A stretch of DNA of 64,000 nucleotides from Escherichia coli (GTDB lineage: Bacteria; Pseudomonadota; Gammaproteobacteria; Enterobacterales; Enterobacteriaceae). The stretch is taken from NCBI GenBank assembly GCA_009729775.1, contig GCA_009729775.1_4081.1; one strand, written 5' to 3'. This document shows positions 812 through 60,074 of this stretch, in pieces. The position numbers and the translations under genes were made by a program. Under the pieces are notes generated by a model. The model saw only the letters and a program-made list of their open reading frames with translations, was not told the origin of the DNA and ran no database searches. The stretch's first letter is position 1, and each line of letters begins with the position of its first letter.

Positions 812-819
812 AATAAATA
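812..819 (+). promoter_or_regulatory. late-promoter-like AATAAATA element
   Basis: AATAAATA about 34 nt upstream of ATG 853, GAGGAAA Shine-Dalgarno before the ATG; matches NATAAATA class of T4-type late promoters. Confidence 0.35.
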
Positions 820-852
820 CATCATATAAATCTATTCTGAGGAAATATTTAA

Positions 853-2817
853 ATGAGTATAAATCGAATTAGAGGTGATGGTGGTGTAATTATTGATAGT
901 AAATCTTTTTTAGAGTTACCGAAAGCACCATCAAAAGAAACCGCTGATGTAATAAGATCAGGGATGATTAGATACAATAAGGAATGGAAATCATTTGAAG
1001 GTGTTCTGGATTTTGAAGATGGTACTATGGCATATCGCCGCTTTGCAAACTTAGATGCAAATGGTAAACTTCTTACTTCCCAATTACCAGATTCAGTAAC
1101 TAGTGGTTTGCAGTTTGTTGGTACATATAATCCTATTCCAGATGATATTGACCCACCTTTAGCACAAACGCCACTACCAGCACCATCAGCATCACTAAAT
1201 GGTGATTATTATGTTGTTCGTGGTATTATGGATGCAGCACAAGCACACTTTGAAGCAAATAACCCACAAACAAGTCCGGTTACATTTACACCTACGAACC
1301 CAACTGGTCAAGGTAATTGGATTGAAATTTTATATTATGTTGACTCCAATCCAAATATATCTGGTGCTAAACTTGTAACATACGCTTTTGCAAGAATTAT
1401 TACTGCATCTATTCCTAGTACTGGTCATGATGGTCTTAAAAATTTAGCAACAGATGCTGACTTAACCAAACCATTTGCTTCAGGCGTTCCAATGAACCAA
1501 ACCGCACTATCAGATGGTGATTGGATCATTATAACTGAAGATAAAAACATACGTCTACGCCAGTCAAGAACAAGCATTTCTGCTGCTTCTGTATTATATG
1601 ACAATACAGTAATGATTGCAAACCATCGTCAATTTAGAACGAACGCAGGAACCGTACAAACATCCATAGATAACGTTGTGATTGAATGTTTACGTAGAAC
1701 TGGTGATTCCATGTATAATGATGGAACAAGCGGCTCAGGGCGTTTTGGTGTGGTGTATGGTAGTGCAGCAGCACCAGCATTGACATTTAATAACAATCCA
1801 TTTGATCCAACCAATAACCCAGGTAATGACCCAGCTAAGTGGTCCGATGCTAATACTGGTATATTTCATCCAGCCGATGACGCAATTGGGTTCAGTACTG
1901 CTGGTACAGAACGTGTTCGAATTAATAATTCAACACTAACATTATATCAATCAACATCAACACCTGCATCAACACCAGTACTAAGATTTGATAATGCAAC
2001 TAATACTAATGTGGGATTAAGTGCTAGTAGTAATATTATTTCATTTAGTTCAATGAATAAAGTTCAAGTTGAATTTAAAAATGGCGAAAGTGCGTTTCAT
2101 GGTAATATTGTTGTTGATGGTACAAGTACATTAACTGGGGATACATCAGCTAGTAATATAACTGCTAGTGGTAATTTAAACATTCAAGGTAATACCACAT
2201 TAGGTGATGCTGCATCAGATACCATTACAGTTAATGGTGTTAGTACTTTTACAGCTAATACTAATTTTAATGGAACAACTAATAAATTTAAAAATATAAA
2301 TCTATTAGCTAATGGTATAATTACATTAGAAAGTACTACTAATCAAAGTACAATCCAATTAGTTAGTTCTGATTTAAAACTATCAATGGGTAATTATGCT
2401 GATGTAAGTATCTATGATAATGGAACTATAAGAACACGTTTTAATAGATATGGTATCCAATTACCAGTACTAGCTACTATTGATAACTCTGTTGGCGTTG
2501 ATGGTATGATTGCATACTCCAATACCGAGCGTACTTCAATGCAAAAAGTTCAAGGTCAATGGGTTCCAATTGGTTCAGGTTCAGTGAGAACCGATGCTTT
2601 TACCATTTCATCTTGGGTATTAAGTGGTGACTACTACACCCTTACTGTAACAGCCTCAAACATCGTCACAGCAGAGATACAGGAACAGGTTAGTCCTGGT
2701 GTCTATACTCGTGTTGAGGTCGATAGCGTGACGTTTAACGGCACTAACGTAGTGTTCAGTATACCTTCAACACCTGATGTACGTTTCGACGGAAGAACAT
2801 TGGTAACAATTAGATAA
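853..2817 (+). CDS. tail fibre / receptor-binding-like structural protein (654 aa)
   Basis: Long ORF with SD; S/T/N/G-rich with beta-rich repeat-like stretches; adjacent to other fibre-like gene; no enzymatic motif seen. Confidence 0.55.
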   Translation: MSINRIRGDGGVIIDSKSFLELPKAPSKETADVIRSGMIRYNKEWKSFEGVLDFEDGTMAYRRFANLDANGKLLTSQLPDSVTSGLQFVGTYNPIPDDIDPPLAQTPLPAPSASLNGDYYVVRGIMDAAQAHFEANNPQTSPVTFTPTNPTGQGNWIEILYYVDSNPNISGAKLVTYAFARIITASIPSTGHDGLKNLATDADLTKPFASGVPMNQTALSDGDWIIITEDKNIRLRQSRTSISAASVLYDNTVMIANHRQFRTNAGTVQTSIDNVVIECLRRTGDSMYNDGTSGSGRFGVVYGSAAAPALTFNNNPFDPTNNPGNDPAKWSDANTGIFHPADDAIGFSTAGTERVRINNSTLTLYQSTSTPASTPVLRFDNATNTNVGLSASSNIISFSSMNKVQVEFKNGESAFHGNIVVDGTSTLTGDTSASNITASGNLNIQGNTTLGDAASDTITVNGVSTFTANTNFNGTTNKFKNINLLANGIITLESTTNQSTIQLVSSDLKLSMGNYADVSIYDNGTIRTRFNRYGIQLPVLATIDNSVGVDGMIAYSNTERTSMQKVQGQWVPIGSGSVRTDAFTISSWVLSGDYYTLTVTASNIVTAEIQEQVSPGVYTRVEVDSVTFNGTNVVFSIPSTPDVRFDGRTLVTIR

Positions 2818-2824
2818 TAAAAAA

Positions 2825-2844
2825 GGGAGAACTGATGTTCTCCC
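2825..2844. terminator. bidirectional rho-independent terminator between convergent genes
   Basis: Perfect 8-bp stem GGGAGAAC/GTTCTCCC with 4-nt loop, flanked by AAAA upstream and TTTTCTTTT downstream; lies between plus-strand stop 2817 and minus-strand stop 2852. Confidence 0.7.
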
Positions 2845-2851
2845 TTTTCTT

Positions 2852-3781
2852 TTATACAGCCATCGGTGCTTTAATTGTTGGCATTGGATTGTAATTCACT
2901 AATTTGAAAGAATCCATTGTGAAATCTTCAATATTAGTAATTGTAGGATCAAGCCATAATTCAGGTAATTCACGAGGTTTTCTCTGTAGTTGTTCTTTTA
3001 CTTGTTCAACGTGGTTTTTATAAATGTGGCAATCACCACCATTCCAAATAAATTCTCCAACATCTAAACCAGTAATTTGTGCAATCATATGAGTTAGTAG
3101 TGAATAACTACTGATATTAAATGGAACTCCCAAAAATAGATCAGCGGATCTTTGATGTAGAATGCAGCTTAGTTTCCCTTGTACTACACAAAATTGTACA
3201 AAGCTATGACAAGGTGGCAACGTCATATCATCAAGCTCACCAACGTTCCATGCACTTAGAATATGGCGACGACCATATGGATCGGACTTTATACCATTGA
3301 TTAGTTCCTGTAATTGGTCAGTTGTACGTTTCATAACAACACCATGTGAACCAGTATAATCGATAACTTTGTATCCTTTATCTTTTAATTCTTGAATTTC
3401 TTCAGTACTGGAACTAAATTTATAATCTTCCCATTCACGCCATTGCTTACCATACACTGGACCTAACTCACCATCAGTATAACCAAGAGCAACGCCTTGA
3501 TTTAGGTAATTATCTGTCCAAATAGTTTTCTTTTCTGTATCACGAGTTCCATGCAAAATTTCACAAAGGCGACGCTCATCATGGGAACCTTCAATAAACC
3601 ATAGTAATTCTGAAGTCATTGCTTTCCAAGCTAGACGTTTTGTCGTCACTGCTGGGAAACCATCTTTAAGGTCAAAACGCATTTGTTGACCGATAAGTTT
3701 GATTGTTCCAACACCAGTACGGTCAACGCTTTCTACGCCTTCATCTAGAATTTTTTGATATAGTTCTTGTAGTTGTTTCAT
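2852..3781 (-). CDS. thyA: thymidylate synthase
   Basis: 309 aa; active-site motif LPPCHSFVQF and overall ThyA-like sequence; uninterrupted (no intron). Confidence 0.93.
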   Translation of the reverse strand: MKQLQELYQKILDEGVESVDRTGVGTIKLIGQQMRFDLKDGFPAVTTKRLAWKAMTSELLWFIEGSHDERRLCEILHGTRDTEKKTIWTDNYLNQGVALGYTDGELGPVYGKQWREWEDYKFSSSTEEIQELKDKGYKVIDYTGSHGVVMKRTTDQLQELINGIKSDPYGRRHILSAWNVGELDDMTLPPCHSFVQFCVVQGKLSCILHQRSADLFLGVPFNISSYSLLTHMIAQITGLDVGEFIWNGGDCHIYKNHVEQVKEQLQRKPRELPELWLDPTITNIEDFTMDSFKLVNYNPMPTIKAPMAV

Positions 3782-5282: not shown

Positions 5283-5316
5283 TTTAATACTCTCCATGTA
5301 TATTGGTACATTAACT

Positions 5317-5325
5317 ATTATATCA
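5317..5325 (-). promoter_or_regulatory. sigma70-like extended -10 promoter (TGATATAAT)
   Basis: Minus-strand TGnTATAAT located between terminator 5358-5379 and start 5282. Confidence 0.4.
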
Positions 5326-5357
5326 TATTTTTATAAGTTGTCCCACTTATAAAAGAA

Positions 5358-5379
5358 GAGAACGGAAAATTCCGTTCTC
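5358..5379 (-). terminator. rho-independent terminator after VWA gene
   Basis: Stem GAGAACGG/CCGTTCTC with 6-nt loop, followed on minus strand by TTCTTTTAT; immediately downstream of stop 5392. Confidence 0.6.
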
Positions 5380-5391
5380 ATTATTTAGTAC

Positions 5392-6816
5392 TTAACTACG
5401 TTGACGCTTTTTATCAGCTTCATATTCGTAGTGTACAGTCTCACCAAATGGTGCAACTTTATTTGGGTTACTGTGAATCACGAACAGTGTTTTACAGTAG
5501 TTTGGATCACCCCATGACTGCCACGGTTCACCATCAGTAAACATTACAAGCTGTTTAGGCTTGTAGTTGTCGTTCTTCATATGAACCCATACTGCTTCAA
5601 AGTCAGTACCACCACCACCTTTTACTGGATATTCCAGAATCTTACGTTCTTCGCCAGTTTTGTAATCCTTTACAGTATAAACTTCAGTATCAAAAGTCAT
5701 GATACGAATCTTAAACTGTTTGAATTGTTTAGTGATGCCAAGAACTTCACTAATGAAATCACGAAGCATATCTTCAGAAATAGACCCAGAAGCATCTAGT
5801 GCAATCGCAATATCAATATCATCATCTGGTTTCATCCCTGGGTAAATTGGATTACCATAGAATGAACCATTAGAACCAAAACCTGCACCCCAAGAACGAC
5901 GATTAGGATTTTGATATGTTGCATCAGACTTCAACCAACTACGAAGTGTACGTTGAAGTTTTGAACGCCAGTCAATCTTTGGTTCTTTAAAGTTGTTAAT
6001 CATACGAGCGATTTCTGCTGGTGTACCACCTGCACGAGCAGCATTCATCATTGCTGTTTTGAAATCATCCATGTAATCACGTTTTTGCTGTTCACTTGAA
6101 CCACCCTCTTGACCTTCTTGTGGAACGTCATGCTGGTCAATGGTAGTACCTTTTGGTTTACCCTTACCATCTTTAATATCGCCAAAAGTACCGCGATTTT
6201 TACCTTCACCTTCGCCACCACCACTTTGTGGTTGACCTTCACCTTCACCATCTTCTTTTTGTTCTTCTTCTTCAAGAAGAATGTAAATCTCTTCTGCGGT
6301 CATACCTTCATATTTTTTATCATACAACCATGAACTTTGGATTTTTCCAATTTTCTCACGAACGATGATTTGGTTAATGGCATAATCCGCTGCACGGTTA
6401 TAACGTTGTGGATCACGCATACCACGACGAAGGAAGTGATCGTAAGCACAGTGTAGAATTTCATGACAAATTACAGCAATAAGGTTTTCATCAGTCAAAC
6501 CTTCAGTCATTTCTTTTAATTGTTCGTCTGTAACTTCAGGATGCTTTTCACGAATAGCTTCTTCATATTCTTTCTTTTTAGATGGGTCTTGAATACCCAT
6601 TACAAATTCTACGTTGTAGAATAGATGTTTACCATCAACTGCTAGAGTACGACACCATGTATTATTAGCAACTGGACGTAAACGTGAAGCGAGTACACCA
6701 AAGAATGGTGCAGTTAACATCAAAGATGTACGAGCCAGAACCAGACGATCTTGACATTCTTTCTGGAGTGCCGGAGATACTTCATTGAATCTGGAAGTAG
6801 ATTTGTTATCTGACAT
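5392..6816 (-). CDS. VWA-domain protein with N-terminal HExxH metallopeptidase-like region
   Basis: 474 aa; HEILH motif; C-terminal MIDAS-like DASGS motif (IALDASGSISEDM); Gly/Glu-rich linker; partner of upstream AAA+ ATPase. Confidence 0.8.
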   Translation of the reverse strand: MSDNKSTSRFNEVSPALQKECQDRLVLARTSLMLTAPFFGVLASRLRPVANNTWCRTLAVDGKHLFYNVEFVMGIQDPSKKKEYEEAIREKHPEVTDEQLKEMTEGLTDENLIAVICHEILHCAYDHFLRRGMRDPQRYNRAADYAINQIIVREKIGKIQSSWLYDKKYEGMTAEEIYILLEEEEQKEDGEGEGQPQSGGGEGEGKNRGTFGDIKDGKGKPKGTTIDQHDVPQEGQEGGSSEQQKRDYMDDFKTAMMNAARAGGTPAEIARMINNFKEPKIDWRSKLQRTLRSWLKSDATYQNPNRRSWGAGFGSNGSFYGNPIYPGMKPDDDIDIAIALDASGSISEDMLRDFISEVLGITKQFKQFKIRIMTFDTEVYTVKDYKTGEERKILEYPVKGGGGTDFEAVWVHMKNDNYKPKQLVMFTDGEPWQSWGDPNYCKTLFVIHSNPNKVAPFGETVHYEYEADKKRQRS

Positions 6817-6890: not shown

Positions 6891-8216
6891 TTAGCCAAGA
6901 GAGCGTGCTTTACGTACAAGTTCAGAGTACTTAGCGATGAAATCTTTAAACGCTGGTACATCTTTAATGGAAATCGCAACCTTATGAAGCGTGATGGTAC
7001 GAATTGCCAGTACTGCCAGTTCTGCTTGAGTTGCAGAGAAGTTATGGTCTAGGAAGGTGATGAAGTTGTTACACAGTTTACCCCATTCTTCCACTGGTAG
7101 ACGTTGTTCTTGCTTCTCATTGAACAGGTCGATAATTTTATAAACCAAGTTCAGAGTGATAAAGTAGTTCGCAGAAATATCCAGAGTTGCGTCGATTTCT
7201 TTGATTTCACCAGACAGAATAGACATAGTATCTGGTAGTTTAGCAACGTTCTCAACGTACTCAATGTATTCAGTTGCAACACCTTCACCAACACGACCAG
7301 CAATCATTGCACGGAACACTTCTTTATCAATTGTCTTAGTTTTCTTGAGATCTTCGTAGCGTGCTACTGCTTCCCATGAACGTGGAGAAGTACCACCGCT
7401 GTGAGAAGGATCTTGTGGACTAAGTGTGTTAAAGTACTTAGAACCAGTGTTGTTGATGAACGCAACAGTTGCTGGGTTCAAACGTTTTGCAATCGCATAA
7501 TCGTTAATCCAATCTTGATGGTAAGGAATCATCTCAATGTGAGTCATACGGTCACGCAGTGGTGTAGCAAGAGAGAAAGTTACACCGCCATCAGTTTCAC
7601 GGTTACCTGCTGCAAGAATCAGTGCAGTCTTAGGTAGCTTCATCTCACCAACACAACGGTCGAGGATTAGCTGATAAGACGCTGCCTGAACAATAGGCAT
7701 TGCAGAGTTAATTTCGTCAAACAGAATAACACCTTTCCAATCTTCGGACAATTTCAGAACTTTAGGTGCAGCCCATACTACCGCAGTTTCAGCTACATAA
7801 TCTTTTGCTTCGGCAAGCTCAGATTCTTTCAGAAGAGAACCGTCAGTTTTACGGAAAAGCTTCTCTGGTACTGGAATACCGCGAAGGTCACTTGGTTCGA
7901 TTTGAGACAAACGGAAATCGATAAAGTTAGTATCTTGGTCGATTAGTTTTGCTTCAAATGCAGCCAGTTCACGGCGTAGCTGATCAGCATTTTCAGGGTC
8001 AGCTTCGATTTGTTGTTTCATGAACTCGATTTTAGCTACGTTATCTTTACGCAGTGGGTAATTTTCATCAGCATATTGACGAGCGATAGCAGACTTACCG
8101 ATACCTGGGCTACCCCAAATCATCAGGCTATCTTGAATCATGTCAGCCAGTGCCATTGCTTCTTTAGCTTTCTTTGGAGTCAGTTTAACGTTCAGGATAT
8201 CGTTTTGAGTAGTCAT
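6891..8216 (-). CDS. AAA+ ATPase, MoxR/CobS-like
   Basis: 441 aa; Walker A GSPGIGKS, Walker B ILFDEIN; AAA+ sensor region; adjacent VWA partner. Confidence 0.8.
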   Translation of the reverse strand: MTTQNDILNVKLTPKKAKEAMALADMIQDSLMIWGSPGIGKSAIARQYADENYPLRKDNVAKIEFMKQQIEADPENADQLRRELAAFEAKLIDQDTNFIDFRLSQIEPSDLRGIPVPEKLFRKTDGSLLKESELAEAKDYVAETAVVWAAPKVLKLSEDWKGVILFDEINSAMPIVQAASYQLILDRCVGEMKLPKTALILAAGNRETDGGVTFSLATPLRDRMTHIEMIPYHQDWINDYAIAKRLNPATVAFINNTGSKYFNTLSPQDPSHSGGTSPRSWEAVARYEDLKKTKTIDKEVFRAMIAGRVGEGVATEYIEYVENVAKLPDTMSILSGEIKEIDATLDISANYFITLNLVYKIIDLFNEKQEQRLPVEEWGKLCNNFITFLDHNFSATQAELAVLAIRTITLHKVAISIKDVPAFKDFIAKYSELVRKARSLG

Positions 8217-8257
8217 GTATATATTTCCTTTTGTTGGATAAAATCGTTTAAGTTTCT

Positions 8258-8286
8258 ATTATAGCCAATCCGTGGGCAAAAGTAAA
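8258..8286 (-). promoter_or_regulatory. sigma70 / T4-early-like promoter
   Basis: Minus strand: -35 (C)TTTACT, 17-bp spacer, -10 TATAAT, about 40 nt upstream of AAA+ ATPase start 8216. Confidence 0.45.
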
Positions 8287-9310: not shown

Positions 9311-10291
9311 TTATTTGTCTCCTAAAAATTTCTTGTATTTTTCTTGGAGACTTTCAAAAATATCTTCTACTTCTTCATCAGAATCATCTTCCAAGTCAAT
9401 GTTACCTTCAGGTGAATCATCTTCTTCACTTTCATTAACATTTAGTGGGTTATCTCCTAATGCAGTGCCTGGGAATTTTGGTTCAAATTTATGAACACGA
9501 TTTTCGTTCCCTTCATTATCATAATACTCAGGTTCTGGACGATTGTCAAGATCTTCATCTACAACACGTCTCCAATAAAACTGATTGCCTTTTGCAATTA
9601 CAACAAAATGGTCACCTTCAACACCATTAGTCTTTAGTTGACCATCACGAACTGCATCAGCTTCTGTTCCATATGGACCGTAATCAGTACTGTTAGATGG
9701 TTCTTCATCTTCAGAGATACTTAGATCTGGTAGAAATTGGGTATCTTTCATTTCTTTATCGGTGGCAGGATTACCCTCTACGGAAAAATCTTCGTCTTCT
9801 TCTTCGTTAATACCAGCAAGGGATAGCATACGACTAAAATCGAATTCTTCTTCAATAATTTCTTCTTCTTCCTCATCGTCTTCTTCAACTGATTCTAGTT
9901 GAGGTTGACCACTAAGGTCAAGAGAAAAATCTTCTTCACCTTCTACACCTGGTTCTGAAAATTCAGCATCCATACTAACTTCATCTGAGTCAGCACCAAA
10001 ATCACCAACATCAGCGGAAAGATCATCAACTGCCGCTGCTAGTGGGTCTTCAACTGAAGTTTCAATTCCACCAATTTCTTCTTCAGCACCAATAGAATCT
10101 AGATCTAGTGGAGCAATAGGTGGAAGAGATGGAGTCATAGACCCCATTGATGGTACTGGAGCAGCAACAACTGGGTCTTGACGTTCAGCTTGACCAGCAA
10201 GTGCTAACATACGTGATAGTGTTTCCAAATCATCAGATTCTAAACCTGCGATATCGATTTTAACTTGTGCTTCATTAATTTTTTTAGCCAT
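9311..10291 (-). CDS. highly acidic (D/E-rich) protein, scaffold-like composition
   Basis: 326 aa with long D/E-rich low-complexity tracts; function not assignable from sequence. Confidence 0.55.
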   Translation of the reverse strand: MAKKINEAQVKIDIAGLESDDLETLSRMLALAGQAERQDPVVAAPVPSMGSMTPSLPPIAPLDLDSIGAEEEIGGIETSVEDPLAAAVDDLSADVGDFGADSDEVSMDAEFSEPGVEGEEDFSLDLSGQPQLESVEEDDEEEEEIIEEEFDFSRMLSLAGINEEEDEDFSVEGNPATDKEMKDTQFLPDLSISEDEEPSNSTDYGPYGTEADAVRDGQLKTNGVEGDHFVVIAKGNQFYWRRVVDEDLDNRPEPEYYDNEGNENRVHKFEPKFPGTALGDNPLNVNESEEDDSPEGNIDLEDDSDEEVEDIFESLQEKYKKFLGDK

Positions 10292-10313: not shown

Positions 10314-11831
10314 TCAATCATTATTATTTAATGATTTTAAAATTTGCACTGTTTCATCCTTTTTACCTGAAAGTAAAATGTCAGCAGCAAGTAGAGAAAC
10401 CTCATCACCACGAGTTAGTAGCACTGTGATTTTTTTAGCATAAGGTGACTCTTTAATTTTAGAAGCTAATGATTGTACGTCATCACCAGCAATTGTTTCA
10501 GATTTAGTTTCTGGTTCAGAAACTTCGTCTGGTTTTTGTTCAGATTCTGGTTCTTTCTTAGGTTCTTCTTTTGATTGAATTTGCTCAGTACCAGAGTCTA
10601 CTTCAGGTGTTTCATCACTTTTAACTTCTTTATCTTGTTCATATTTGGCAAGTAATTTAGCAGCAGTTGCTTTTGGTATAAACTTACCATCAGCACTAAT
10701 GAATCTGTCACCACCAACATACGAATATTCTTTGCCTTGTTTGGATTTAACTTTTGTACCGATTTTCATAGCACCGGAATTGTTATGACGGAAAATATCA
10801 CGCTGTGCTGCTCGTTCAACACTTTTAGAAGCACTTGTGTTAAGTTGCTTTTTACTTTCGATATCATACCACAAGTTATTTTTCTTAGCGTATGTTTTTC
10901 CTTTAGAAGAAGTCATTCTATAACCGTCAGGAACAGTAATGCTTTCAAATTCTTCAATTTCTTCATCTGCTTCATTAATTGATTCTTTAGTTGCAAATAC
11001 TGGCTGTTTAGCAGGTTGTGAAGCTTGTTGTGGCTTTTCACCTGAACCAAAACGTTGCTCACTATGTTCTTGTTCACCCGTTAATGTTGGAAAATCACTT
11101 GGGTTATTCTTAACAAATTGCTGATATGCATTAATAATTGCATGTGCATTTTGTTCTGGAATTACTACATTACCATCATTATCACAAAATTCTTTACCAT
11201 TCCACTCACAACGTGTATTGCCTTGTACTAAGGTTGATTTGATTGGAATTAGTTTATTTTTAGAAGCTAACTGACGAGCAATACGCATACCTTCATCTGA
11301 TAGTTTACGGGTCATTGCTGGATCAACTGCTCGGCCTGATTTCATATCAACAAAACGGTGATTCTTTGGAACAAATTTAAAACCACTTACTTCCATACCT
11401 GCTGGAATTGATATATCATCAGCATATGGTGGAAGAATGTAAAATTTTAATGCATTCCATTCTTTTTGTAGTGTTTCTTTAGAAACATTATATACTCGAT
11501 GATCATCTGCCATTAATTCAGTGATGAATTCACTTTCAGTTAATAGAATTCCATCTTTTGAATTGAAACGGTTTTCACCAATAAATGTACACTCTTTACC
11601 TTCAACAATATATTTGTTACCAATCTTATATTCATTTGAAGCTAGATTGTGCTCGACAATCTGTTGTCGAGCACTTGCGTACATGGATGGGTATTTTCTA
11701 GGGTCTACCATTAACATATTATTGTCATTGAACCAGAATCCTTCAAGAAATACATATTTTGCACCAGTATGTGACGTATATACATATCCATTAGGAACTG
11801 TGGTAGTTTCAGTACTGAAAAAATTATCCAT
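10314..11831 (-). CDS. hypothetical protein with internal tandem domain duplication (505 aa)
   Basis: Two related segments (VPNGYVYTSHTGAKY.../VPDGYRMTSSKGKTY... and KIGNKYIVEGKE.../KIGTKVKSKQGKE...) separated by a low-complexity linker. Confidence 0.55.
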   Translation of the reverse strand: MDNFFSTETTTVPNGYVYTSHTGAKYVFLEGFWFNDNNMLMVDPRKYPSMYASARQQIVEHNLASNEYKIGNKYIVEGKECTFIGENRFNSKDGILLTESEFITELMADDHRVYNVSKETLQKEWNALKFYILPPYADDISIPAGMEVSGFKFVPKNHRFVDMKSGRAVDPAMTRKLSDEGMRIARQLASKNKLIPIKSTLVQGNTRCEWNGKEFCDNDGNVVIPEQNAHAIINAYQQFVKNNPSDFPTLTGEQEHSEQRFGSGEKPQQASQPAKQPVFATKESINEADEEIEEFESITVPDGYRMTSSKGKTYAKKNNLWYDIESKKQLNTSASKSVERAAQRDIFRHNNSGAMKIGTKVKSKQGKEYSYVGGDRFISADGKFIPKATAAKLLAKYEQDKEVKSDETPEVDSGTEQIQSKEEPKKEPESEQKPDEVSEPETKSETIAGDDVQSLASKIKESPYAKKITVLLTRGDEVSLLAADILLSGKKDETVQILKSLNNND

Positions 11832-11844: not shown

Positions 11845-12387
11845 TTAAGAAAGCATACGTAACAGTTGGTCGCGTTGCTCTGGACTTAATTTTTGTAGAG
11901 CATCAGGGATACTGGAACCTTGTGCTTTTGGTTGTTCTTGTTGTGCTGGTTGCTCAGTTGAGGTCGATTGTGATGGTTGTGATTCTGAACTTTCTTCGCC
12001 ACCTTGTTGGTCACGGTAGTCATTCATTATATCACGAGCAGCATTTAATAGAGCAGTACCTACATCTTTTGGTGTAAAAGAACGACGAGGATTGTTCCCT
12101 AAATGTTTAATATCAAGATTGTTACCTTTAAAAAACTGTGCCACATCAGCGTAAGGTACTGATGGTTGAGCTTTACCATATTTACGTCCAACATAACGTT
12201 TAAACTCTGCCCATAAGCGGTTGGCTTCAGCACCAACTTCTTGTGCACCTTGTTCAATCTGTCCACTACCAAAAAAGCCTTTTACTTTTCCTTTTGCACT
12301 ATCAACTGCACTTTGTGAACGACTATAAGGACGAGCTTCATTTAACTCATTGTCTTCATAATCTAACATTTCATTAAGTATACTCAT
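11845..12387 (-). CDS. hypothetical protein (180 aa)
   Basis: ORF in track; Q/S/E-rich C-terminal tail. Confidence 0.5.
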   Translation of the reverse strand: MSILNEMLDYEDNELNEARPYSRSQSAVDSAKGKVKGFFGSGQIEQGAQEVGAEANRLWAEFKRYVGRKYGKAQPSVPYADVAQFFKGNNLDIKHLGNNPRRSFTPKDVGTALLNAARDIMNDYRDQQGGEESSESQPSQSTSTEQPAQQEQPKAQGSSIPDALQKLSPEQRDQLLRMLS

Positions 12388-12390: not shown

Positions 12391-12927
12391 TTAATCCTTT
12401 TTACCAAAACCAGCACTCATATATTGAGAGTATTTATTGTCTTTTTTCGATGCTTCAATTGCATCATCAACGGCAGTGTCTGCACGTTGTTGTCCAGCTA
12501 AGTCATAACTGTCTTCTGGTTTGCCAAAATCCACTCCAATAACTGGTTCATCAACATCATCAAAATCGATATCATCTTCCAAATCAGTCATTTCAATTTG
12601 ACGAGGTTCATCTTTACTACGAACACGAATCAATGCTTCTGTCATGCTTAGTAAATTGCCAATTTCATACATTAGTACATTTGATTGAACGCCACGATGA
12701 CATTTAAAGTCAAACATCCAAATTTCACCACAATCTAATTCATAGAAATCTAATGGTTTTTCCATAAAAATTGTTTTCTTTAGTGCTCCAATTTCAAACG
12801 CATCATAGCGATCCATTAGTCGCTGTGTTACTTTACTAAGTTGTTCAGGTGTTGGTTCAACTGCAAACTTAACTCGGTATTCATAAACTGGTTTCTTTTC
12901 AGTTAGGATTTGTTGTAATCTATTCAT
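12391..12927 (-). CDS. hypothetical protein (178 aa)
   Basis: ORF in track; tight spacing. Confidence 0.5.
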   Translation of the reverse strand: MNRLQQILTEKKPVYEYRVKFAVEPTPEQLSKVTQRLMDRYDAFEIGALKKTIFMEKPLDFYELDCGEIWMFDFKCHRGVQSNVLMYEIGNLLSMTEALIRVRSKDEPRQIEMTDLEDDIDFDDVDEPVIGVDFGKPEDSYDLAGQQRADTAVDDAIEASKKDNKYSQYMSAGFGKKD

Positions 12928-12954: not shown

Positions 12955-15062
<2,108 letters not shown>

Positions 15063-15885: not shown

Positions 15886-15892
15886 TATTTAG
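15886..15892 (-). promoter_or_regulatory. late-promoter-like CTAAATA element
   Basis: Minus-strand CTAAATA about 36 nt upstream of ATG 15850, followed by AAAGAGG SD. Confidence 0.35.
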
Positions 15893-15944: not shown

Positions 15945-16631
15945 TTAATTTTCGTAGAAGTTACTATCTGGTAGAGTAGTACTACTAATATTAGTTTGTG
16001 CACCAGAAATAGAGGTAGCAGTTGATGGATTACCGAAACCACTAACTTCATCACCGAACGCTTCGCCATTTGGACCCAATTTAGCACAACCATCTGGTTG
16101 AACTGTCATTGAAATAACTTGTGCTTCACTTGAGGAATAATCCCAATCACCAAAGTTGCTGGATTCAATAAAGCAACCTTGACATACCCAAGTACTCAAT
16201 GTTCCTTCAAACAAGTTTGTTGTATTTTCACTATTAGAACCATCAAGCTCTTGAATCCACATTTCAAATTTAAATTGTGAATCTGTCATGCGAGATTCTT
16301 GACTGTAGTAGTTAAATTCTTTACGCATTTGGTTGTATAGTGCTTTAGCAGAAGCATTACCTACAGAGTCACGGAAAGCAACATCAATTGTATCCCAAGT
16401 GTATTTCCCTTTGTAGTGTGCAGAACTGTTGTAACTATGAACAGTGACGTTTTCATGTGATACAGATACTGCCCCAACTGTATTGGTGTCTAGTGTAATC
16501 ATATTACCATCATCATTAGTACCAAAACCAAAGAAAATAACACGAAATTTGTATTTTGCTTTTGGTTGTTTCATAGAGATACGACCACCGCCAGCGAGCG
16601 GTACGCCATATCGATCAAGCATTGTAGCCAT
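15945..16631 (-). CDS. putative tail tube protein, paralog 1
   Basis: 228 aa; paralog of 15074..15850; first gene after the sheath intergenic region. Confidence 0.45.
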   Translation of the reverse strand: MATMLDRYGVPLAGGGRISMKQPKAKYKFRVIFFGFGTNDDGNMITLDTNTVGAVSVSHENVTVHSYNSSAHYKGKYTWDTIDVAFRDSVGNASAKALYNQMRKEFNYYSQESRMTDSQFKFEMWIQELDGSNSENTTNLFEGTLSTWVCQGCFIESSNFGDWDYSSSEAQVISMTVQPDGCAKLGPNGEAFGDEVSGFGNPSTATSISGAQTNISSTTLPDSNFYEN

Positions 16632-16666: not shown

Positions 16667-16674
16667 TATTTATC
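16667..16674 (-). promoter_or_regulatory. late-promoter-like GATAAATA element
   Basis: Minus-strand GATAAATA about 36 nt upstream of ATG 16631; GGAG SD. Confidence 0.35.
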
Positions 16675-16947: not shown

Positions 16948-17000
16948 AATGTCCCTTTATAACATCAATATAAAGGTATTTAATTTTAAACAATAAAAAA

Positions 17001-19690: not shown

Positions 19691-19740
19691 ATTAAATCCT
19701 CCAAAAATAATTGGTTATTCGAAATATATTCGTATAGTCT

Positions 19741-19748
19741 TATTTATT
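19741..19748 (-). promoter_or_regulatory. late-promoter-like AATAAATA element
   Basis: Minus-strand AATAAATA about 51 nt upstream of sheath ATG 19690. Confidence 0.35.
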
Positions 19749-19784
19749 GAAGGATTTAATTGTCCAGTCCTTATTGTTTATAAT

Positions 19785-21572: not shown

Positions 21573-21612
21573 AGCACCTCATTAATGTTTATATACATTA
21601 TTTAGAGGTGCT
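21573..21612 (-). promoter_or_regulatory. SD-sequestering stem-loop containing late-promoter-like CTAAATA
   Basis: 8-bp stem AGCACCTC/GAGGTGCT; 3' arm contains the SD; CTAAATA (21599-21605) sits at start of loop; T-run follows. Confidence 0.45.
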
Positions 21613-23360: not shown

Positions 23361-23612
23361 TTATTTAGGGTTGCCAGAAACCTTCACATATTTGATAAAT
23401 GCCAAAATATCATCTTTACTAAAAGATTTTACAATAAATTCGACAGCCGAATCATACTGTTCTTGTTTAGATAGATATTCTTTCATTTTGTTAATTTTAA
23501 TCTGGGCTTTTTCTTTAGCTATTGAAATATCAGGAATTTTGAACTCTACTCCCAACGTATCAGCTAGTTGTTTTGCACGAGATGATACTTTTTCAATATC
23601 CATTAGTTCCAA
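23361..23612 (-). CDS. hypothetical protein (83 aa)
   Basis: ORF in track. Confidence 0.45.
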   Translation of the reverse strand: MELMDIEKVSSRAKQLADTLGVEFKIPDISIAKEKAQIKINKMKEYLSKQEQYDSAVEFIVKSFSKDDILAFIKYVKVSGNPK

Positions 23613-33952: not shown

Positions 33953-33984
33953 AATATCTCTCCTTAGAGTTATTCTCTTATTAT

Positions 33985-34413
33985 TTAGTTAATAATAAAG
34001 GTAATTTCAGGATTCATTTCCGAAACTGCATTGCGTTTACTTCTATCCCATAGTATTCTGTTATTATACAAAGAAGAATCACATACGACAAGTAAGCAAT
34101 TTCTTAATCTACTTACAGTACTTTGATTATTTAAATCAGTTTCTGAGATAAAAAATACATTTTCAGGAACTACTAAAGGAATAGATTTATCAAAAAACAA
34201 AACTACAATAGGTCTTGTTGTATGAACTGATTTAACAAAATCCAAAATACTATTATAAAAATTAGTTTCTTTAGTAATTACTGACGGATCTTTAATTCTT
34301 TTCAAATATTGCTGTGGTAATTGATGTTCGTCTTTTATCTGAAACTCAAAATATTCTTTGAATAACATTTGTGTTAATTCAGATTTATCGGATATTTTCG
34401 TTGTGTTACTCAT
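33985..34413 (-). CDS. hypothetical protein (142 aa)
   Basis: ORF in track. Confidence 0.5.
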   Translation of the reverse strand: MSNTTKISDKSELTQMLFKEYFEFQIKDEHQLPQQYLKRIKDPSVITKETNFYNSILDFVKSVHTTRPIVVLFFDKSIPLVVPENVFFISETDLNNQSTVSRLRNCLLVVCDSSLYNNRILWDRSKRNAVSEMNPEITFIIN

Positions 34414-37232: not shown

Positions 37233-37239
37233 TATTTAG
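37233..37239 (-). promoter_or_regulatory. late-promoter-like CTAAATA element
   Basis: Minus-strand CTAAATA about 28 nt upstream of ATG 37205. Confidence 0.35.
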
Positions 37240-41080: not shown

Positions 41081-41243
41081 TTTTAATGTCTACGCCAGTT
41101 GCACCTGAAAAATTATTTTGAAATTTAATAACTCCGGTAGTGTGGATATCTGTGAAAATTTGTTGTGCCATACTTAATCCTTGCGTTAATTTATATTGAG
41201 TATTTATCGAGTATAATGGCATTTTTAGTACCATTATACTCAT
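41043..41243 (-). CDS. small ORF (66 aa), possibly 5' part of a frameshifted gene
   Basis: Starts 5 nt after stop of upstream NTase gene; terminates within overlap with 40544..41080. Confidence 0.35.
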   Translation of the reverse strand: MSIMVLKMPLYSINTQYKLTQGLSMAQQIFTDIHTTGVIKFQNNFSGATGVDIKNDGFNIVSTRIY

Positions 41244-47894: not shown

Positions 47895-50591
47895 TTACCA
47901 GTTTATGGTTCCTGTTTGTGATGGTAGACCGTAGCTAACTGGGAACGATGAACCTGCTGATTCAAGTGAAGCACCAAATATATCTAAACGGGAACGTTTT
48001 TGTATATTAATTGTTTCGATTTGAATTGCATTAGTTTGAATAGTACCTATCCAAAAAATATTATATGCAGTTGTTCCTGTTTCAGAAATAACATCAGTAG
48101 TTATGTAATAGTTTGCCAATCCTTGTTCCAATTTAACATATACATAGAATGTTGTATTTGCTGGATTAGACTTAATAGTTCTCAAATCAATATTTGAAAC
48201 TGGTAGTGAAAATGACTTACCTGAAAGAATAACAGGTGTTTCCTCAGTAAAATAAACAATAAATCCTTGTGCAACGTCCTGTGACACTAAGTTAATTGGG
48301 CTACCTTGAGCAGTCCAGTTATTATAGTCTGTAATCGTTGTCCCATATTTTTTGAATGTCATTTTATTTGAGTAATCCATTGGCTCCAAAATTCCAAAAC
48401 CAATACCAGGTAATGCTGCGGGTTGACTTCCTTGTTCATAACTGGCATGAGATCCAGTAATAATAAAACTTGTAAATTGTGCAGTTGATTTAGTTACATA
48501 TGCTCTAAATTGATGAGTTGCAGTATTACCTATTGTTGGATGTGTTAATGGGTCAGAACCACCAATGAAGTAGAATGAACCACCATCATATATTGTCAAA
48601 CCAACAGAAGAAGATGCAATCGAACCATTCCCATTTGGTGTAAAGTTATCACCATATGTATTTTCAAGTACTAAACGCTTGAATGTAATAGATGTAATAT
48701 TACCAACTCTAGTATTAACATTAACTTCAGCAATTCTAATATAGTTTCTATAATCATTAGTAACTGTACTCAACATAACGAAAGCAGGAATGTCTGTTTG
48801 TTGCGGAACAAATAGTGTCATATCACGGTATGCTTGTGCTGATAAATTCCAATCACTTAGAACTTTCGCATATTCAGCATTTCTAAAATTATCAAGTACT
48901 GATTGTGTTACACTTATAATACCTGTACCATTTAAGTTTTTATCATAGGATAAAGATTGTGAATAACGTTGTCCAACCATAAAAATACCACCATTGGTTG
49001 TGACAGTTGACCCAGAAATACTACTAATAAAAATTCTATTATTTGCATTATCATCAACATTAGCACGTTCAACTGTAGGTTCATAACCTTGTATTGTTCC
49101 TAAAGATAATGATTTAAATGTAAAATTAGGAGTACTTTTATGAACTGCATATGATGGTCTAAATCCACCACTACCCGAAGCACGTGAATATTGTTTAGTA
49201 CTGTTATCTGGTAGTAATTCCACACCATTAATAAATGAGCCTACGGCTGAACCAAATGATGGACGAACTATTCCACCTTTGAAATCAGTTGATAGTACTG
49301 CACGGACATTCAGCATACTATAAACTATTTGAATAGGAAACTTAGCTTTTTGCATAAGTAATGGTTCTGCTAAGTTTGGACATGCAGTACAAAATGCTTC
49401 ACCAGAATTTAAATAAAAATAAGAACTGTAAATATTCCTTGCATTTGCATGGTTATACAATGGATCGTTATTTAAAACGTTACCAGTAGGAACTAATGCT
49501 GAACCAGTATCCGTTATAACTAATGGTGCTTGGTATGAACCAATATCATTACCCGCATCTAATGTACATTGTTTAGTACTCATATTGAATACAAAACTGT
49601 AACTATGTTGTGGTCGTGTATTATAAGTTGCCATTGTAAACCAAGCATCACCATTCATTCTAAAGCGGAAATTCTGTGTACCTGGCTGCTGTGCAACATA
49701 TAAATCGATTGATGTCATGTAAATCCCAATACCACGTAGATTTTTTGGAACATACACATAAGGTTTATCAGCGATATTCGTTGATGTTACCTGATTAGTT
49801 ATAACCATATTATTTTGTGCAGAATAAGTTGTATTATAAAATGTTTTAGTAGTCCATCCAGTAATACGAGTTGCTGTATAAGTGCCATTACTGATATTAT
49901 AAACAACTTTAACTACAACTAATTGTAATTGGTTATTTGCATTAAGTACGTTGAAAACATATATAGAACCATCTTCTGCCATCATAGCATATTCAATACC
50001 ACCTTCAGGTGATATATCTGCTTGGTTAACGAAAAAACCAGTATGCAATTTATCATCTAATGTACCATTGGTAATTGATATAAACAAACCATTAGTACTG
50101 TTAGAAGTGTCAATATATCTACCGAGTAAAATATTTGGATCAGTATTGTATAAACCAATCGCAACTCGATTTGAACCAAAAAATCCAGGCTTGTATTGAC
50201 GACTTGTGTTAATTGTACGGCTCATGTCATCAACTGATAATGCGTTAGCTAAATATGAATAAAATAATCCCTCAACACTACCGTTTGTCCCACTACGTAA
50301 AAGCACTAGTGTACCATCGTTTTCTAATAAAATTTTATTTCTACGTTGTGTCTGGTTTTCTGATGCACCATTGAAATCTCCAGAAACACCCGCAGGTAGA
50401 TAGTTTTGTGAACCATAATGGGAGATTGGCATCATACTTACTATATCTAGTACTTCATCTCTTGAATAAGTATCTAGCTCCATATTGCCATTAGCATCAA
50501 ATACTTGATCATTGATACCTTGTATTGTTCTTTTACCATTAACTGTCACATTATGTGTGACATCCAAGCCACCATATATTTTCTTTGACAT
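47895..50591 (-). CDS. tail fibre protein (898 aa)
   Basis: Long S/T/N/G-rich ORF; N-terminal region paralogous to 44550..47279; shared C-terminal module; canonical TATAAATA upstream. Confidence 0.6.
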   Translation of the reverse strand: MSKKIYGGLDVTHNVTVNGKRTIQGINDQVFDANGNMELDTYSRDEVLDIVSMMPISHYGSQNYLPAGVSGDFNGASENQTQRRNKILLENDGTLVLLRSGTNGSVEGLFYSYLANALSVDDMSRTINTSRQYKPGFFGSNRVAIGLYNTDPNILLGRYIDTSNSTNGLFISITNGTLDDKLHTGFFVNQADISPEGGIEYAMMAEDGSIYVFNVLNANNQLQLVVVKVVYNISNGTYTATRITGWTTKTFYNTTYSAQNNMVITNQVTSTNIADKPYVYVPKNLRGIGIYMTSIDLYVAQQPGTQNFRFRMNGDAWFTMATYNTRPQHSYSFVFNMSTKQCTLDAGNDIGSYQAPLVITDTGSALVPTGNVLNNDPLYNHANARNIYSSYFYLNSGEAFCTACPNLAEPLLMQKAKFPIQIVYSMLNVRAVLSTDFKGGIVRPSFGSAVGSFINGVELLPDNSTKQYSRASGSGGFRPSYAVHKSTPNFTFKSLSLGTIQGYEPTVERANVDDNANNRIFISSISGSTVTTNGGIFMVGQRYSQSLSYDKNLNGTGIISVTQSVLDNFRNAEYAKVLSDWNLSAQAYRDMTLFVPQQTDIPAFVMLSTVTNDYRNYIRIAEVNVNTRVGNITSITFKRLVLENTYGDNFTPNGNGSIASSSVGLTIYDGGSFYFIGGSDPLTHPTIGNTATHQFRAYVTKSTAQFTSFIITGSHASYEQGSQPAALPGIGFGILEPMDYSNKMTFKKYGTTITDYNNWTAQGSPINLVSQDVAQGFIVYFTEETPVILSGKSFSLPVSNIDLRTIKSNPANTTFYVYVKLEQGLANYYITTDVISETGTTAYNIFWIGTIQTNAIQIETINIQKRSRLDIFGASLESAGSSFPVSYGLPSQTGTINW

Positions 50592-50625: not shown

Positions 50626-50633
50626 TATTTATA
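50626..50633 (-). promoter_or_regulatory. T4-type late promoter TATAAATA
   Basis: Exact TATAAATA on minus strand 35 nt upstream of ATG 50591, directly after nrdG terminator. Confidence 0.5.
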
Positions 50634-51450: not shown

Positions 51451-53319
51451 TTATTTGTGCTGAATACGCTCACAACACTCTTGTTGTTTGCCTTTATTGA
51501 ATCCACGCGAAGAAGGATTACCCAAGTAACCAGAAACACGACGAATCACTGAGATTGTCTTCTCATTACGATTATCACATACCGGACAGTGGAAACCATG
51601 TTTATCTACACTGAACTCACCCTGGAAGCCACATTCATAACAATGGTCAACTGGTTGGTTAATACCAAAATATGGTATCTTCGTGTAAGCATAGTTAACT
51701 AATGTTTCAAGTGCTTGAATGTTGTTTGCTAAGTTTGGAGATTCAACATAACTGATGTTTCCACCGTTACTTAGGTAAGCAAAGCCTTCTTCATAACTCC
51801 ATTTATCAAATGGAGAACTTTCTACCCATACTGGTTGATGGAAGGAATTTGTGATGTAATCACGTTTTAGTACTGAAGGATATTTTGCTTCAATACAACG
51901 TGCAAATTTATAACAAAGTGACTCTGCTGGCGTTCCATATAGACTAAAAGCTATATTACTCTCTTTTTTGAACTCATCGCATTTTACTTTCATATAATTC
52001 AGTACTGACATACAAAACTCCTTACTGATAGAACCAGTGAGGATTTCTGAACATTCAACAAGTCCAACATAACCAATACTAATACTAGCATAACCATTGT
52101 AAAATAGCTTGTCAATGGTTTCTTCTGCACCTAAACGTGCTAATGCACCTTCCATGAACAAAATTGGATTTTGCTTTGCTTTAGTGCCTTTTAAACGCTC
52201 TACGCGGTTCATCTGAGCACGATATGCAATATTCATATGCTCGTCTATCTTATCAAAAAACTCTCCGTCAGAAGTACTCTCAAGAGCAATTAGAGGTAAA
52301 TTGATAGAAACCACACCTAAATTGAAACGACCGTTGTATTGTTCATTTCCATTTGAATCTTCCCATTTTCCTAAGAATGAACGACAGCCCATCGGTGTTA
52401 CAGCAGTACTACTACTTCCAGTCACTTTGTGATTTAATGGTACTGAAACAAAGTCAGGGTAGATTCGTTTTGATGCACAACGCATAGCTAACTGTTTAAG
52501 GTCATAATTACTATCGTTGGTATTCATGTTTATACCATCTTGTAAAAAGAAAATTACTTTAGGAAACACTGGAGTAATCTTATCTTTACCTAAACCATTC
52601 TCATGGACTTTTAAGTACTGTTCAGTGATTAATTTGCCAAATTTAGAAGTGTTAAGACCTAAACTAAGAGAAATAAATGCAGCTTGACCATTAGTACTAA
52701 TCATTGAATTAGTTTGGTAAAGTAATGTTTGGCAGCCATCATACACTTCTTTACGTAGTTCTTCTTCAATGAATTCATCACTTAGATTATATTTCTTTTG
52801 TTTTTCTAACAGCTTATCCCATGACTTTTGAACGTAAGGTTCTAATCCGACATCAATGTGAGCCAAAGATTGACCACCATACTGGGAACTGGCAACAGCT
52901 TGGACAATTTGTGTCAGTACTGTGCAAGCTACACTGAAACTTTTTGGTTCTTCAATTTTAGCACAACCAATAGTGAAGCCGTTTTTAAGCATATCAGGAT
53001 AGTTAACCAAGCAACAATTGGTCAATGGGCTAATATAGTAATCTAAATCATGAATATGACCATATCCATCATTATGCCATTGCATTAACTCGGTGGGAAT
53101 AACATCTTGTGAATAATGCTTAGATAGAATACCTGCTAGTAAATCTCTATGTGTATTGACGCATTTTGCATCTTTATTAGCGTTTTCATTAGTAAGATCA
53201 GTATTACTCTGATTTAGGAAATTTGTTACATCGGTATATAATTTATCTAATTGCATTGTACATTCCTTGTATTTTGAAATCATCTGGGGGTGAAGATATT
53301 TAATATCACCAGACAACAT
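51451..53319 (-). CDS. nrdD: anaerobic ribonucleoside-triphosphate reductase (class III)
   Basis: 622 aa; NENANKD, TNCCLV, QYGG blocks; C-terminal Zn ribbon and glycyl-radical motif RRVSGYLG; close to T4 NrdD as recalled. Confidence 0.92.
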   Translation of the reverse strand: MLSGDIKYLHPQMISKYKECTMQLDKLYTDVTNFLNQSNTDLTNENANKDAKCVNTHRDLLAGILSKHYSQDVIPTELMQWHNDGYGHIHDLDYYISPLTNCCLVNYPDMLKNGFTIGCAKIEEPKSFSVACTVLTQIVQAVASSQYGGQSLAHIDVGLEPYVQKSWDKLLEKQKKYNLSDEFIEEELRKEVYDGCQTLLYQTNSMISTNGQAAFISLSLGLNTSKFGKLITEQYLKVHENGLGKDKITPVFPKVIFFLQDGINMNTNDSNYDLKQLAMRCASKRIYPDFVSVPLNHKVTGSSSTAVTPMGCRSFLGKWEDSNGNEQYNGRFNLGVVSINLPLIALESTSDGEFFDKIDEHMNIAYRAQMNRVERLKGTKAKQNPILFMEGALARLGAEETIDKLFYNGYASISIGYVGLVECSEILTGSISKEFCMSVLNYMKVKCDEFKKESNIAFSLYGTPAESLCYKFARCIEAKYPSVLKRDYITNSFHQPVWVESSPFDKWSYEEGFAYLSNGGNISYVESPNLANNIQALETLVNYAYTKIPYFGINQPVDHCYECGFQGEFSVDKHGFHCPVCDNRNEKTISVIRRVSGYLGNPSSRGFNKGKQQECCERIQHK

Positions 53320-58934: not shown

Positions 58935-59272
58935 TACATGTAATCCTTGATGTATTTTAGCAGTTTAGATTTCTCTTCGGTACTTAATGATTTCTTGTTC
59001 ATTAAGTGTTTCATTTCTTGACGTTCAATTTCTTCACATCTTTTAGATTCAGCTTCAATTCGTGTATTATATTCTTCGTCAGTTTCTTCTCTGGTCCAAA
59101 TTACATTGTATCCATGAAAACCGCCGTAACCACTGTCTGGTGAAAGACTAATGTGACCGTTATATTCAGCACGATACTTATTAAGAGTGTCAATAAAGGT
59201 ATCAATGCCACACGGTTCAATTTCAATATAACCAATCACTACAGTAACGTCAATTTTGTTCATAAAGTTCAC
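58934..59272 (-). CDS. hypothetical protein (112 aa)
   Basis: ORF in track. Confidence 0.45.
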   Translation of the reverse strand: MNFMNKIDVTVVIGYIEIEPCGIDTFIDTLNKYRAEYNGHISLSPDSGYGGFHGYNVIWTREETDEEYNTRIEAESKRCEEIERQEMKHLMNKKSLSTEEKSKLLKYIKDYM

Positions 59273-59290
59273 CTATAAAATTAGGGAGCA

Positions 59291-59848
59291 TTAGCTCCCT
59301 TTGTATTGATGTTTATGTTTTGTACTGTATTTCCAGCCAGTACTATGTCTTGTTCTGATATCGTCCCAATACGATGGTAATGAACGCATCTTACGTCTTC
59401 CACGTATATCAGGTTCCCCCTCATCCTTCAGTACTGCACAAGCCATACGACGCTCTTGTTGAGTCTTAGGACGCTTGTATCGGGAGTGGTTATGTTTGTA
59501 CATATACGAACGCTTATGACGCCATTCCGTATCACGAGCTTTACGTTTATGTTCCCAGTACTCATTATAGAGTATCATGTATTCACCCATAAGTAAATCA
59601 GGAGATACAAGTAATCCTTTTTCAGTACAAAGATAATAACCCACAAACTTTTCTGGAAACATTTCGTAATAGAAACGGTTCTTCCAAAATGTTTCACGAT
59701 TCTTTTTGTTGAATTCTGCTAAATCAAATTTCATCTTACTGTGGAAACGATCTATCCCTTGATGGTCAGCAATGTATTGAAGTAGATCGTCTACAATCTC
59801 AACTTTACCAGAATCGTGATACAACGTAAATGTTTGGTCAAAAAACAT
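59291..59848 (-). CDS. hypothetical protein with strongly basic C-terminal tail (185 aa)
   Basis: AAGGAG SD 8 nt upstream; K/R/H/Y-rich C-terminus. Confidence 0.45.
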   Translation of the reverse strand: MFFDQTFTLYHDSGKVEIVDDLLQYIADHQGIDRFHSKMKFDLAEFNKKNRETFWKNRFYYEMFPEKFVGYYLCTEKGLLVSPDLLMGEYMILYNEYWEHKRKARDTEWRHKRSYMYKHNHSRYKRPKTQQERRMACAVLKDEGEPDIRGRRKMRSLPSYWDDIRTRHSTGWKYSTKHKHQYKGS

Positions 59849-59950
59849 ATGAAATCTCCTTTAAGTTAAAATAACCTAATGGAAAGTCATTCTTCCTTTA
59901 ATACATGTTCTCATGATTTGTTCCTTTTGTCAAGATATAGATATAAAAAA

Positions 59951-59970
59951 TCCCTGCCAAAAGACAGGGA
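59951..59970 (-). terminator. rho-independent terminator
   Basis: 6-bp stem TCCCTG/CAGGGA, 8-nt loop, followed on minus strand by TTTTTT. Confidence 0.6.
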
Positions 59971-60074
59971 CGAAAAACTGAAATAACACATGGAGTTCTT
60001 TTTAATTTAATAAAAAGTATTATTATTCTTATAAAAGTATTTATTAAGAACTCCACAATATTGCTTCAAATGAA

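Follow-up and report, generated by a model that had tools for sequence, protein, structure and literature searches.

We identified 15 copies of the hexamer TAAATA at promoter positions in a 64,000-nucleotide (nt) stretch of Escherichia coli assembly GCA_009729775.1 (the window), each lying 27-50 nt upstream of a start codon. We interpret these boxes, with a probability of roughly 85%, as late promoters of the -10 type in a RaK2-like jumbo phage, read by a phage sigma factor of the gp55 family. A sequence-only reading of this DNA had likened the motif to divergent T4-like late promoters, and this likeness is supported by the link to virion and lysis genes, the lack of a -35 element, avoidance of the hexamer in coding sequences (CDSs), conservation, and a gp55-family sigma factor in relatives of the phage.

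A 10-kb piece of the window is 96-97% identical to Escherichia phages SP27, 121Q, PBECO4, phAPEC6 and others, and a second piece is 99.7% identical to slurp01. Judged by these matches, the window is from an Asteriusvirus, a jumbo myovirus of ~350 kb that is 121Q/PBECO4/phAPEC6-like and belongs to the RaK2-like group. The genome is 34% G+C, and annotated relatives show almost all genes on the minus strand. Genes for virion components (neck, sheath, three tube proteins, fibre, and virion proteins), a spanin, and nucleotide metabolism are interleaved, so the specificity of the boxes for one gene class can be tested.

TAAATA is concentrated upstream of genes and avoided within them

The sequence-only reading had estimated about one TAAATA per 770 nt, in agreement with the expectation from base composition. 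Across the whole window the hexamer is depleted, with 45 copies vs 125 in dinucleotide shuffles. The zone 20-60 nt upstream of starts makes up 6% of the sequence and holds 15 of the 34 sense-strand copies (binomial p=3e-10), and the intervals 0-19 and 60-99 nt before a start contain none. Antisense copies in the tally upstream of starts number only four and are scattered. In 300 local dinucleotide shuffles of the upstream sequence, the 15 observed copies compare with a mean of 5.9 and a maximum of 12. The enrichment beyond AT-richness proposed by the sequence-only reading is therefore borne out and proves stronger than it had claimed.

Inside CDSs we observe 13 sense copies where synonymous-codon shuffles give 34.1 (minimum 22), and 7 antisense copies where they give 32.0 (minimum 19). 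Among 15 hexamers of equal composition, TAAATA shows the strongest depletion in CDS interiors. The 108-kb syntenic region of phage CBB, a distant member of the same phage group, contains 23 promoter-position boxes, with 13 copies vs 63.5 (sense) and 5 vs 54.6 (antisense) in CDS interiors. Avoidance on both strands points to a signal at the DNA level rather than an mRNA signal.

Anatomy and inventory of the boxes

All 15 boxes have TAAATA without change. Immediately 5′ of it stands A in 7 boxes, C in 5, T in 3, and G in none, and immediately 3′ of it A in 9, C in 5, and T in 1; the full T4 octamer, TATAAATA, occurs in only one box, at 50626. We found no -35 partner, since the best match to TTGACA averages 3.1 of 6 positions vs a background of 3.0 and no box reaches 5, and none of the 15 carries a TG extension of the -10. 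Thus neither form of sigma70-type promoter, a TTGACA-like -35 at 16-19 bp from a TATAAT-like -10 or a TGn extended -10, was found at the boxes. The 12 nt 3′ of the boxes are 74% A+T.

Distances in Table 1 run from the end of the motif to the start codon, and box coordinates are those of the hexamer, octamers being 2 nt longer; at the neck gene the distance is counted to the ATG at 21567, which a Shine-Dalgarno (SD) sequence precedes, and not to the first ATG of the open reading frame (ORF). Seven of the eight sites listed by the sequence-only reading, those with octamer or heptamer coordinates in Table 1, lie exactly where it placed them, each ahead of an SD-preceded start, and their distances (33, 50, 35, 35, 31, 27, and 34 nt in the order 812, 19741, 16667, 15886, 21599, 37233, and 50626) agree with the similar spacing it had described. 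The remaining eight promoter-position sites in Table 1, all on the minus strand, were absent from that reading.

Table 1. TAAATA boxes at promoter positions in the window, with associated genes and predicted RNA hairpins.
Feature	Coordinates	Strand	Distance to start (nt)	Downstream gene and setting	CBB counterpart
TAAATA box (AATAAATA, octamer 812-819)	814..819	+	33	ATG of gene 853-2817	Box at 31 nt; Table S7 Porf_224
Gene	853-2817			654 aa; structural protein; comes after tail-fibre genes	CBB_224 orthologue
TAAATA box	10325..10330	-	33	Gene 9311-10291 (phAPEC6 gp267c, virion protein); box within 3′ end of gene 10314-11831	Box at 28 nt
TAAATA box	12431..12436	-	43	Gene 11845-12387 (gp269c)	
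TAAATA box	12956..12961	-	28	Gene 12391-12927 (gp270c, virion protein); box overlaps stop of gene 12955-13509	Box at 28 nt; Table S7 Porf_210
CTAAATA box (heptamer 15886-15892)	15886..15891	-	35	Tail tube gene 15074-15850 (gp274c); box immediately 3′ of terminator hairpin	
GATAAATA box (octamer 16667-16674)	16667..16672	-	35	Tail tube gene 15945-16631 (gp275c)	
TAAATA box	16977..16982	-	29	41-codon ORF 16822-16947 (gp276c); box past sheath gene terminator	
AATAAATA box (octamer 19741-19748)	19741..19746	-	50	Tail sheath gene 17027-19690	Table S7 Porf_204
Sheath gene RNA hairpin	19691..19760	-		5′ arm 19747-19760 AUUAAAUCCUUCAA ends at box; 3′ arm 19691-19704 covers SD GGAGG	
CTAAATA box (heptamer 21599-21605)	21599..21604	-	31	Neck/head-tail adaptor gene 20776-21567 (gp280c)	Table S7 Porf_201
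Neck gene RNA hairpin	21573..21612	-		5′ arm AGCACCUC 21605-21612 adjoins box; 3′ arm GAGGUGCU 21573-21580 is the SD	
CTAAATA box	23362..23367	-	47	80-aa gene 23072-23314	Box at 48 nt
CTAAATA box	33982..33987	-	29	Gene 33512-33952 (gp306c, virion protein, 66% coverage by mass spectrometry); box overlaps stop of gene 33985-34413	Box at 28 nt; Table S7 Porf_169
CTAAATA box (heptamer 37233-37239)	37233..37238	-	27	Gene 36831-37205 (Rz-like spanin by phage JP4 annotation)	Box at 31 nt
GATAAATA box	41201..41206	-	29	42-codon gene 41043-41171 (gp315c, virion protein), after which comes tail-fibre gene 37753-40542 (gp314c)	
TATAAATA box (octamer 50626-50633)	50626..50631	-	34	Gene 47895-50591 (gp323c, virion protein); box past terminator	Box at 35 nt
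TTAAATA box	53297..53302	-	40	Anaerobic ribonucleotide reductase gene nrdD (51451-53256)	Box at 31 nt

Boxes are associated with virion genes and conserved across genera

Using the virion proteome of phAPEC6 determined by mass spectrometry (PMC7247149) to define virion proteins, we found that 9 of the 15 box-bearing genes encode a detected virion protein vs 7 of 80 other genes (Fisher p=3e-5, odds ratio 15.6). Three of the seven unboxed virion genes come immediately after a boxed gene, and one further boxed gene is that of the Rz-like spanin. The MoxR-type ATPase encoded at 6891-8216 was also detected in virions; the region upstream of its gene (8217-8286, minus strand) has a sigma70-like TATAAT (GGCTATAATAG) and no TAAATA.

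The association is retained in CBB. Of the 47 window genes that have CBB orthologues (24-78% protein identity), 12 have a box in both phages, 34 have none in either, 1 has it solely in the window, and no gene has it solely in CBB (p=2.5e-10), with nearly equal box-to-start spacing in the two phages; the 16977 box was left out because gp276c has no available CBB orthologue. Across eight relatives (RaK2, CBB, GAP32, fHe-Yen9-03, 7t3, Kaldavass, vB_Ec-M-J, and Turkey5), TAAATA is identical in 8/8 at the neck, sheath, and two tube genes, and the sequence 5′ of the box diverges. Upstream of the dNMP kinase gene and the third tube gene, TAAATA is absent in all eight. Altogether, five or six genera keep the box at orthologous genes. 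The box of nrdD, whose position is kept in CBB, suggests that this nucleotide-metabolism gene may be expressed late as well as earlier.

An alternative in which the boxes are -10 elements of host sigma70, or of a second, RpoD-like phage sigma (CBB_513 type), would make use of the resemblance of the AT-rich TAAATA to TATAAT and of the complete RpoD-like sigma that the group also encodes (PMC5259590). We consider it improbable given the lack of a -35 or TG extension, the association with virion genes, and the match of the motif to the T4 gp55 target (PMC2988020), and a separate TGAAAC-N-TATAAT class was described at non-structural genes of CBB (PMC5259590). This second CBB promoter class (TGAAAC-N13-18-TATAAT) has one exact match in the window, no more than expected by chance.

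Hairpins predicted to mask the SD in read-through RNA

At the sheath and neck genes, the sequence just 5′ of the box is predicted to pair with the SD. The 14-nt arm at the sheath gene pairs with UUGGAGGAUU in a hairpin with a minimum free energy of -20.7 kcal/mol (z=-5.0, with 0 of 200 shuffles as stable), and the neck hairpin reaches -17.0 kcal/mol (z=-4.8). Predicted folds show this architecture at both genes in 8/8 relatives. The neck arms vary yet stay complementary, being CACCTC/GAGGTG here, ACCCC/GGGGT in CBB, GAP32, Yen9-03, and Kaldavass, and GCACCCC/GGGGTGC in 7t3. Conservation was assessed from folds of each sequence, since the MAFFT alignment set the CBB-type and 7t3-type arms 1-2 columns out of register, which would make a count of covarying pairs at the neck hairpin meaningless.

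RNA begun ~7 nt past the box would be nearly unstructured at both genes (-3 to -5.5 kcal/mol for the sheath). The modelled late leaders of all 15 boxes range from 0 to -6 kcal/mol, with the SD less paired than in read-through RNA. In modelled read-through RNA the SD is clearly masked at the sites of the sheath, the neck, the spanin, and 23362, and over the whole set the effect is clear at only 2-4 of the 15 boxes. In T4 genes e, soc, and 49, a late promoter inside an SD-sequestering hairpin masks read-through RNA, and the hairpins with an internal promoter predicted here resemble them, with the 5′ arm upstream of the box and the 3′ arm over the SD. In the modelled folds, this layout would place the productive mRNA start at the hairpin genes between box and SD, as a promoter would give.

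The same layout can be read at the RNA level, with UAAAUA acting as an RNase E-type processing site in a hairpin loop, where cleavage frees the ribosome-binding site, or as a translation-enhancing leader. The fixed position of the box relative to the SD and start codon fits such a role, as does the placement of the neck and sheath boxes in the loop of an SD-sequestering hairpin, where cleavage would be equivalent to internal initiation. However, the equally strong antisense avoidance (7 vs 32 in the window; 5 vs 54.6 in CBB) would not arise from an mRNA signal, several boxes lie directly past terminators, where little upstream RNA arrives, and the phage family encodes a gp55-type sigma that has this sequence as its known target; we rate the RNA-level explanation a shade below the sigma70-type one. 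That the boxes are a chance product of AT-rich intergenic sequence and TAA stops is hardly credible, because even with a genome of 34% G+C and two boxes that overlap stop codons, local shuffles give 5.9 vs 15 copies, position is strict and strand-specific, CBB keeps the box at 12/13 genes vs 0/34, and 13/15 boxes are clear of stop codons. Stop-codon overlap, -35 partners, and AT-richness were each considered as explanations of the boxes and rejected on the local shuffles, the 2/15 overlaps, and the lack of a -35.

A gp55-family sigma factor in close relatives

The sequence-only reading had suggested looking for gp55 and gp33 homologues elsewhere in the genome, and we found a gp55-family gene in every close relative: phAPEC6 (gp237c), 121Q (gene 591), PBECO4, slurp01, and JP4. 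Each of the 33 matching Escherichia records contains a homologue of CBB_244 (annotated as 'sigma factor for late transcription') at 74-79% identity, and in every case it adjoins gp47/46-type nuclease genes. In phAPEC6, gp237c lies ~39 kb from the position of the left end of the window.

This late sigma homologue matches phrog_234, the T4 gp55 family, at 8e-18, the match ending at profile position 135 of 181; T4 gp55 scores 3e-69 against phrog_234 and 5e-7 against the RaK2-type phrog_12791. By BLASTP, the homologue is 24% identical to T4 gp55 over 139 residues (E=2e-4), and outside the phage group its best tblastn matches are cyanophage gp55 proteins (E 1e-8 to 3e-10). Its N-terminus, KRKKYLNNADLLREI, resembles by eye that of T4 gp55, KPKYNYVNNKELLQAI. 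Searches against Pfam, NCBIfam, and PDB sequences gave nothing useful, and of the library and translated searches only PHROGs and tblastn tied the protein to gp55.

From these observations we infer the following scheme, which covers the form of the polymerase, the sites of initiation, late timing, and masking of translation. After infection, the gp55-family minimal sigma would be made from its gene ~39 kb outside the window and would guide the core RNA polymerase of E. coli to TAAATA boxes that are flanked preferably by A or C and lack a -35. Initiation would occur a few nt 3′ of the box in the AT-rich stretch, yielding short (~20-45 nt), weakly structured 5′ leaders ahead of virion, tail, and spanin genes. 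Exclusion of TAAATA from both strands of gene interiors would prevent stray late initiation. At the neck, sheath, and probably spanin genes, pairing of the sequence just 5′ of the box with the SD predicts that read-through transcripts are translationally masked, the ribosome-binding site being exposed only in RNAs initiated at the box.

Several points weigh against the late promoter assignment. Six of the 15 boxes, including that of nrdD, precede genes not known as structural, and the 12431 box, the weakest member of the set, is the sole one without a counterpart at its CBB orthologue. The sigma gene lies outside the window, and its presence here is taken from relatives with 96-99% identity. 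With 279 residues, the homologue is about 100 longer than T4 gp55 (185) and ends without the T4 clamp-binding tail SLDFLYEAND, and Buttimer et al. 2017 (PMC5259590) reported that homologues of gp33 and gp45 were not found in CBB. Our literature search found no transcript 5′-end or timing data for the RaK2-like group; the only related study found, RNA-seq of PA5oct, describes sigma70-type promoters only (PMC7318152), and the RaK2 genome paper and the EJP2 paper contain nothing on phage promoters.

Because neither gp33 nor gp45 was found in CBB, the T4 mechanism of activation may not apply, although gp33 orthologues have been reported in group 2 jumbo phages (Iyer 2021), in disagreement with Buttimer et al. 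2017 on gp33. The longer sigma without SLDFLYEAND suggests that late transcription in the RaK2-like group may not be clamp-coupled. A further and tentative proposal, which we think rather unlikely as a whole, is that a remodelled gp55, with ~100 extra residues, no clamp tail, and only the 6-bp TAAATA core as its target, runs late transcription, together with temporal control exerted partly by the conserved hairpins that silence read-through RNA. If true, late transcription would be free of the coupling to the replication clamp that T4 has.

Other TAAATA copies and palindromes in the window

The eighth site of the sequence-only reading, given as 60036-60043, does not stand as a promoter-position box. 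The octamer AATAAATA is in fact found 2 nt away, at 60038-60045 on the minus strand, and has no credible gene start downstream: the nearest solid start, at 59848, is 189 nt away, and the 26-codon ORF that begins with the sole ATG, at 46 nt, lacks an SD. There is no counterpart at the corresponding place in CBB. A 62-codon gene and a terminator flank the hexamer (60038-60043), which falls within an inverted repeat of 9 bp (GGAGTTCTT/AAGAACTCC); 3′ of it (59960-60060, minus strand), with no credible gene in between, comes a hairpin resembling a terminator (CCCTGTCTTTTGGCAGGG followed by a T run). This box could drive a short non-coding RNA or the 26-codon mini-ORF. Another copy, at 5382-5387 on the minus strand, lies between the stop of gene 5392-6816 and a terminator hairpin (5300-5395), an arrangement that is alike in CBB; 3′ of it there is an extended -10-like TGATATAAT (TGAAAC...TATAAT in CBB) and then the next gene.

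The window is also rich in the palindrome CAGTACTG, with 35 copies vs 0.86 in dinucleotide shuffles and 2.5 in synonymous-codon shuffles (examples are 1893-1900, 18148-18155, 35587-35594, and 61673-61680). All but one of the copies (34/35) are inside genes, in all three frames, and the core AGTACT, a ScaI site, exceeds all other 6-bp palindromes in over-representation (131 vs 35). The palindrome is equally enriched in CBB and RaK2, and 1 of 19 sites matches at the orthologous CBB position, so its density rather than its position seems to be maintained. We found no literature on CAGTACTG, and a sequence query matched primer sequences only. Other 6-bp palindromes are absent from CDSs (CAGCTG, 0 vs 14.6; ACCGGT, 0 vs 5.6; CCATGG, 0 vs 5.0 in synonymous shuffles), which looks like restriction-site avoidance.

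Comparison with known late promoters

The T4 late promoter is an 8-bp TATAAATA at -10 that is read by gp55-RNA polymerase with no -35, and variants at -13 are used (Geiduschek and Kassavetis 2010, PMC2988020). The boxes in the window share with it a single -10-type AT box without a -35, an AT-rich downstream segment, and a place ahead of virion and lysis genes, and close relatives of the window phage carry the gp55-family sigma gene beside gp47/46 homologues. They differ from it in that only TAAATA is fixed and 1/15 has the full octamer, and in the sigma of the relatives, with its ~100 extra residues and no SLDFLYEAND.

The degenerate first positions, which the sequence-only reading had compared with cyanophage and divergent T4-like promoters, do have known parallels in NATAAATA of cyanophage S-PM2 (PMC2984593) and in (a/g)CTAAATA of Aeromonas phage Aeh1, with (a/g)C at -13/-12 (PMC2988020). 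In both, as here, the first one or two positions are degenerate and the TAAATA core is retained; they differ in that gp33 and gp45 homologues are present in both and their gp55 is of T4 size (PMC2984593, PMC2988020).

The closest precedent is 'promoter 3' of CBB, ATAAATA/CTAAATA, a motif that Buttimer et al. 2017 obtained from a MEME search confined to regions ahead of structural genes, with 35 sites in CBB and a presence in GAP32 as well, and likened to the T4 late promoter (PMC5259590). Table S7 of CBB lists orthologues of at least seven of our boxes: those of the neck, sheath, and two tube genes, CBB_169, 210, and 224. The main text of PMC5259590 reports no CDS avoidance, cross-genus conservation statistics, or SD-masking hairpins, and we found no published report of these features or of the tail-less sigma. 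They are incremental additions to the published prediction. The map of 15 predicted late promoters can serve to annotate the operons and expression timing of Asteriusvirus phages; some of these phages have been studied as antibacterial agents. The window phage and CBB/GAP32 belong to the same phage group and share the motif and the orthologous genes it precedes, but the window phage is of another genus, Asteriusvirus. Since the motif has been published at orthologous CBB genes, the boxes described here are a new genus-level instance of the prediction made for CBB and GAP32, and no concept is changed.

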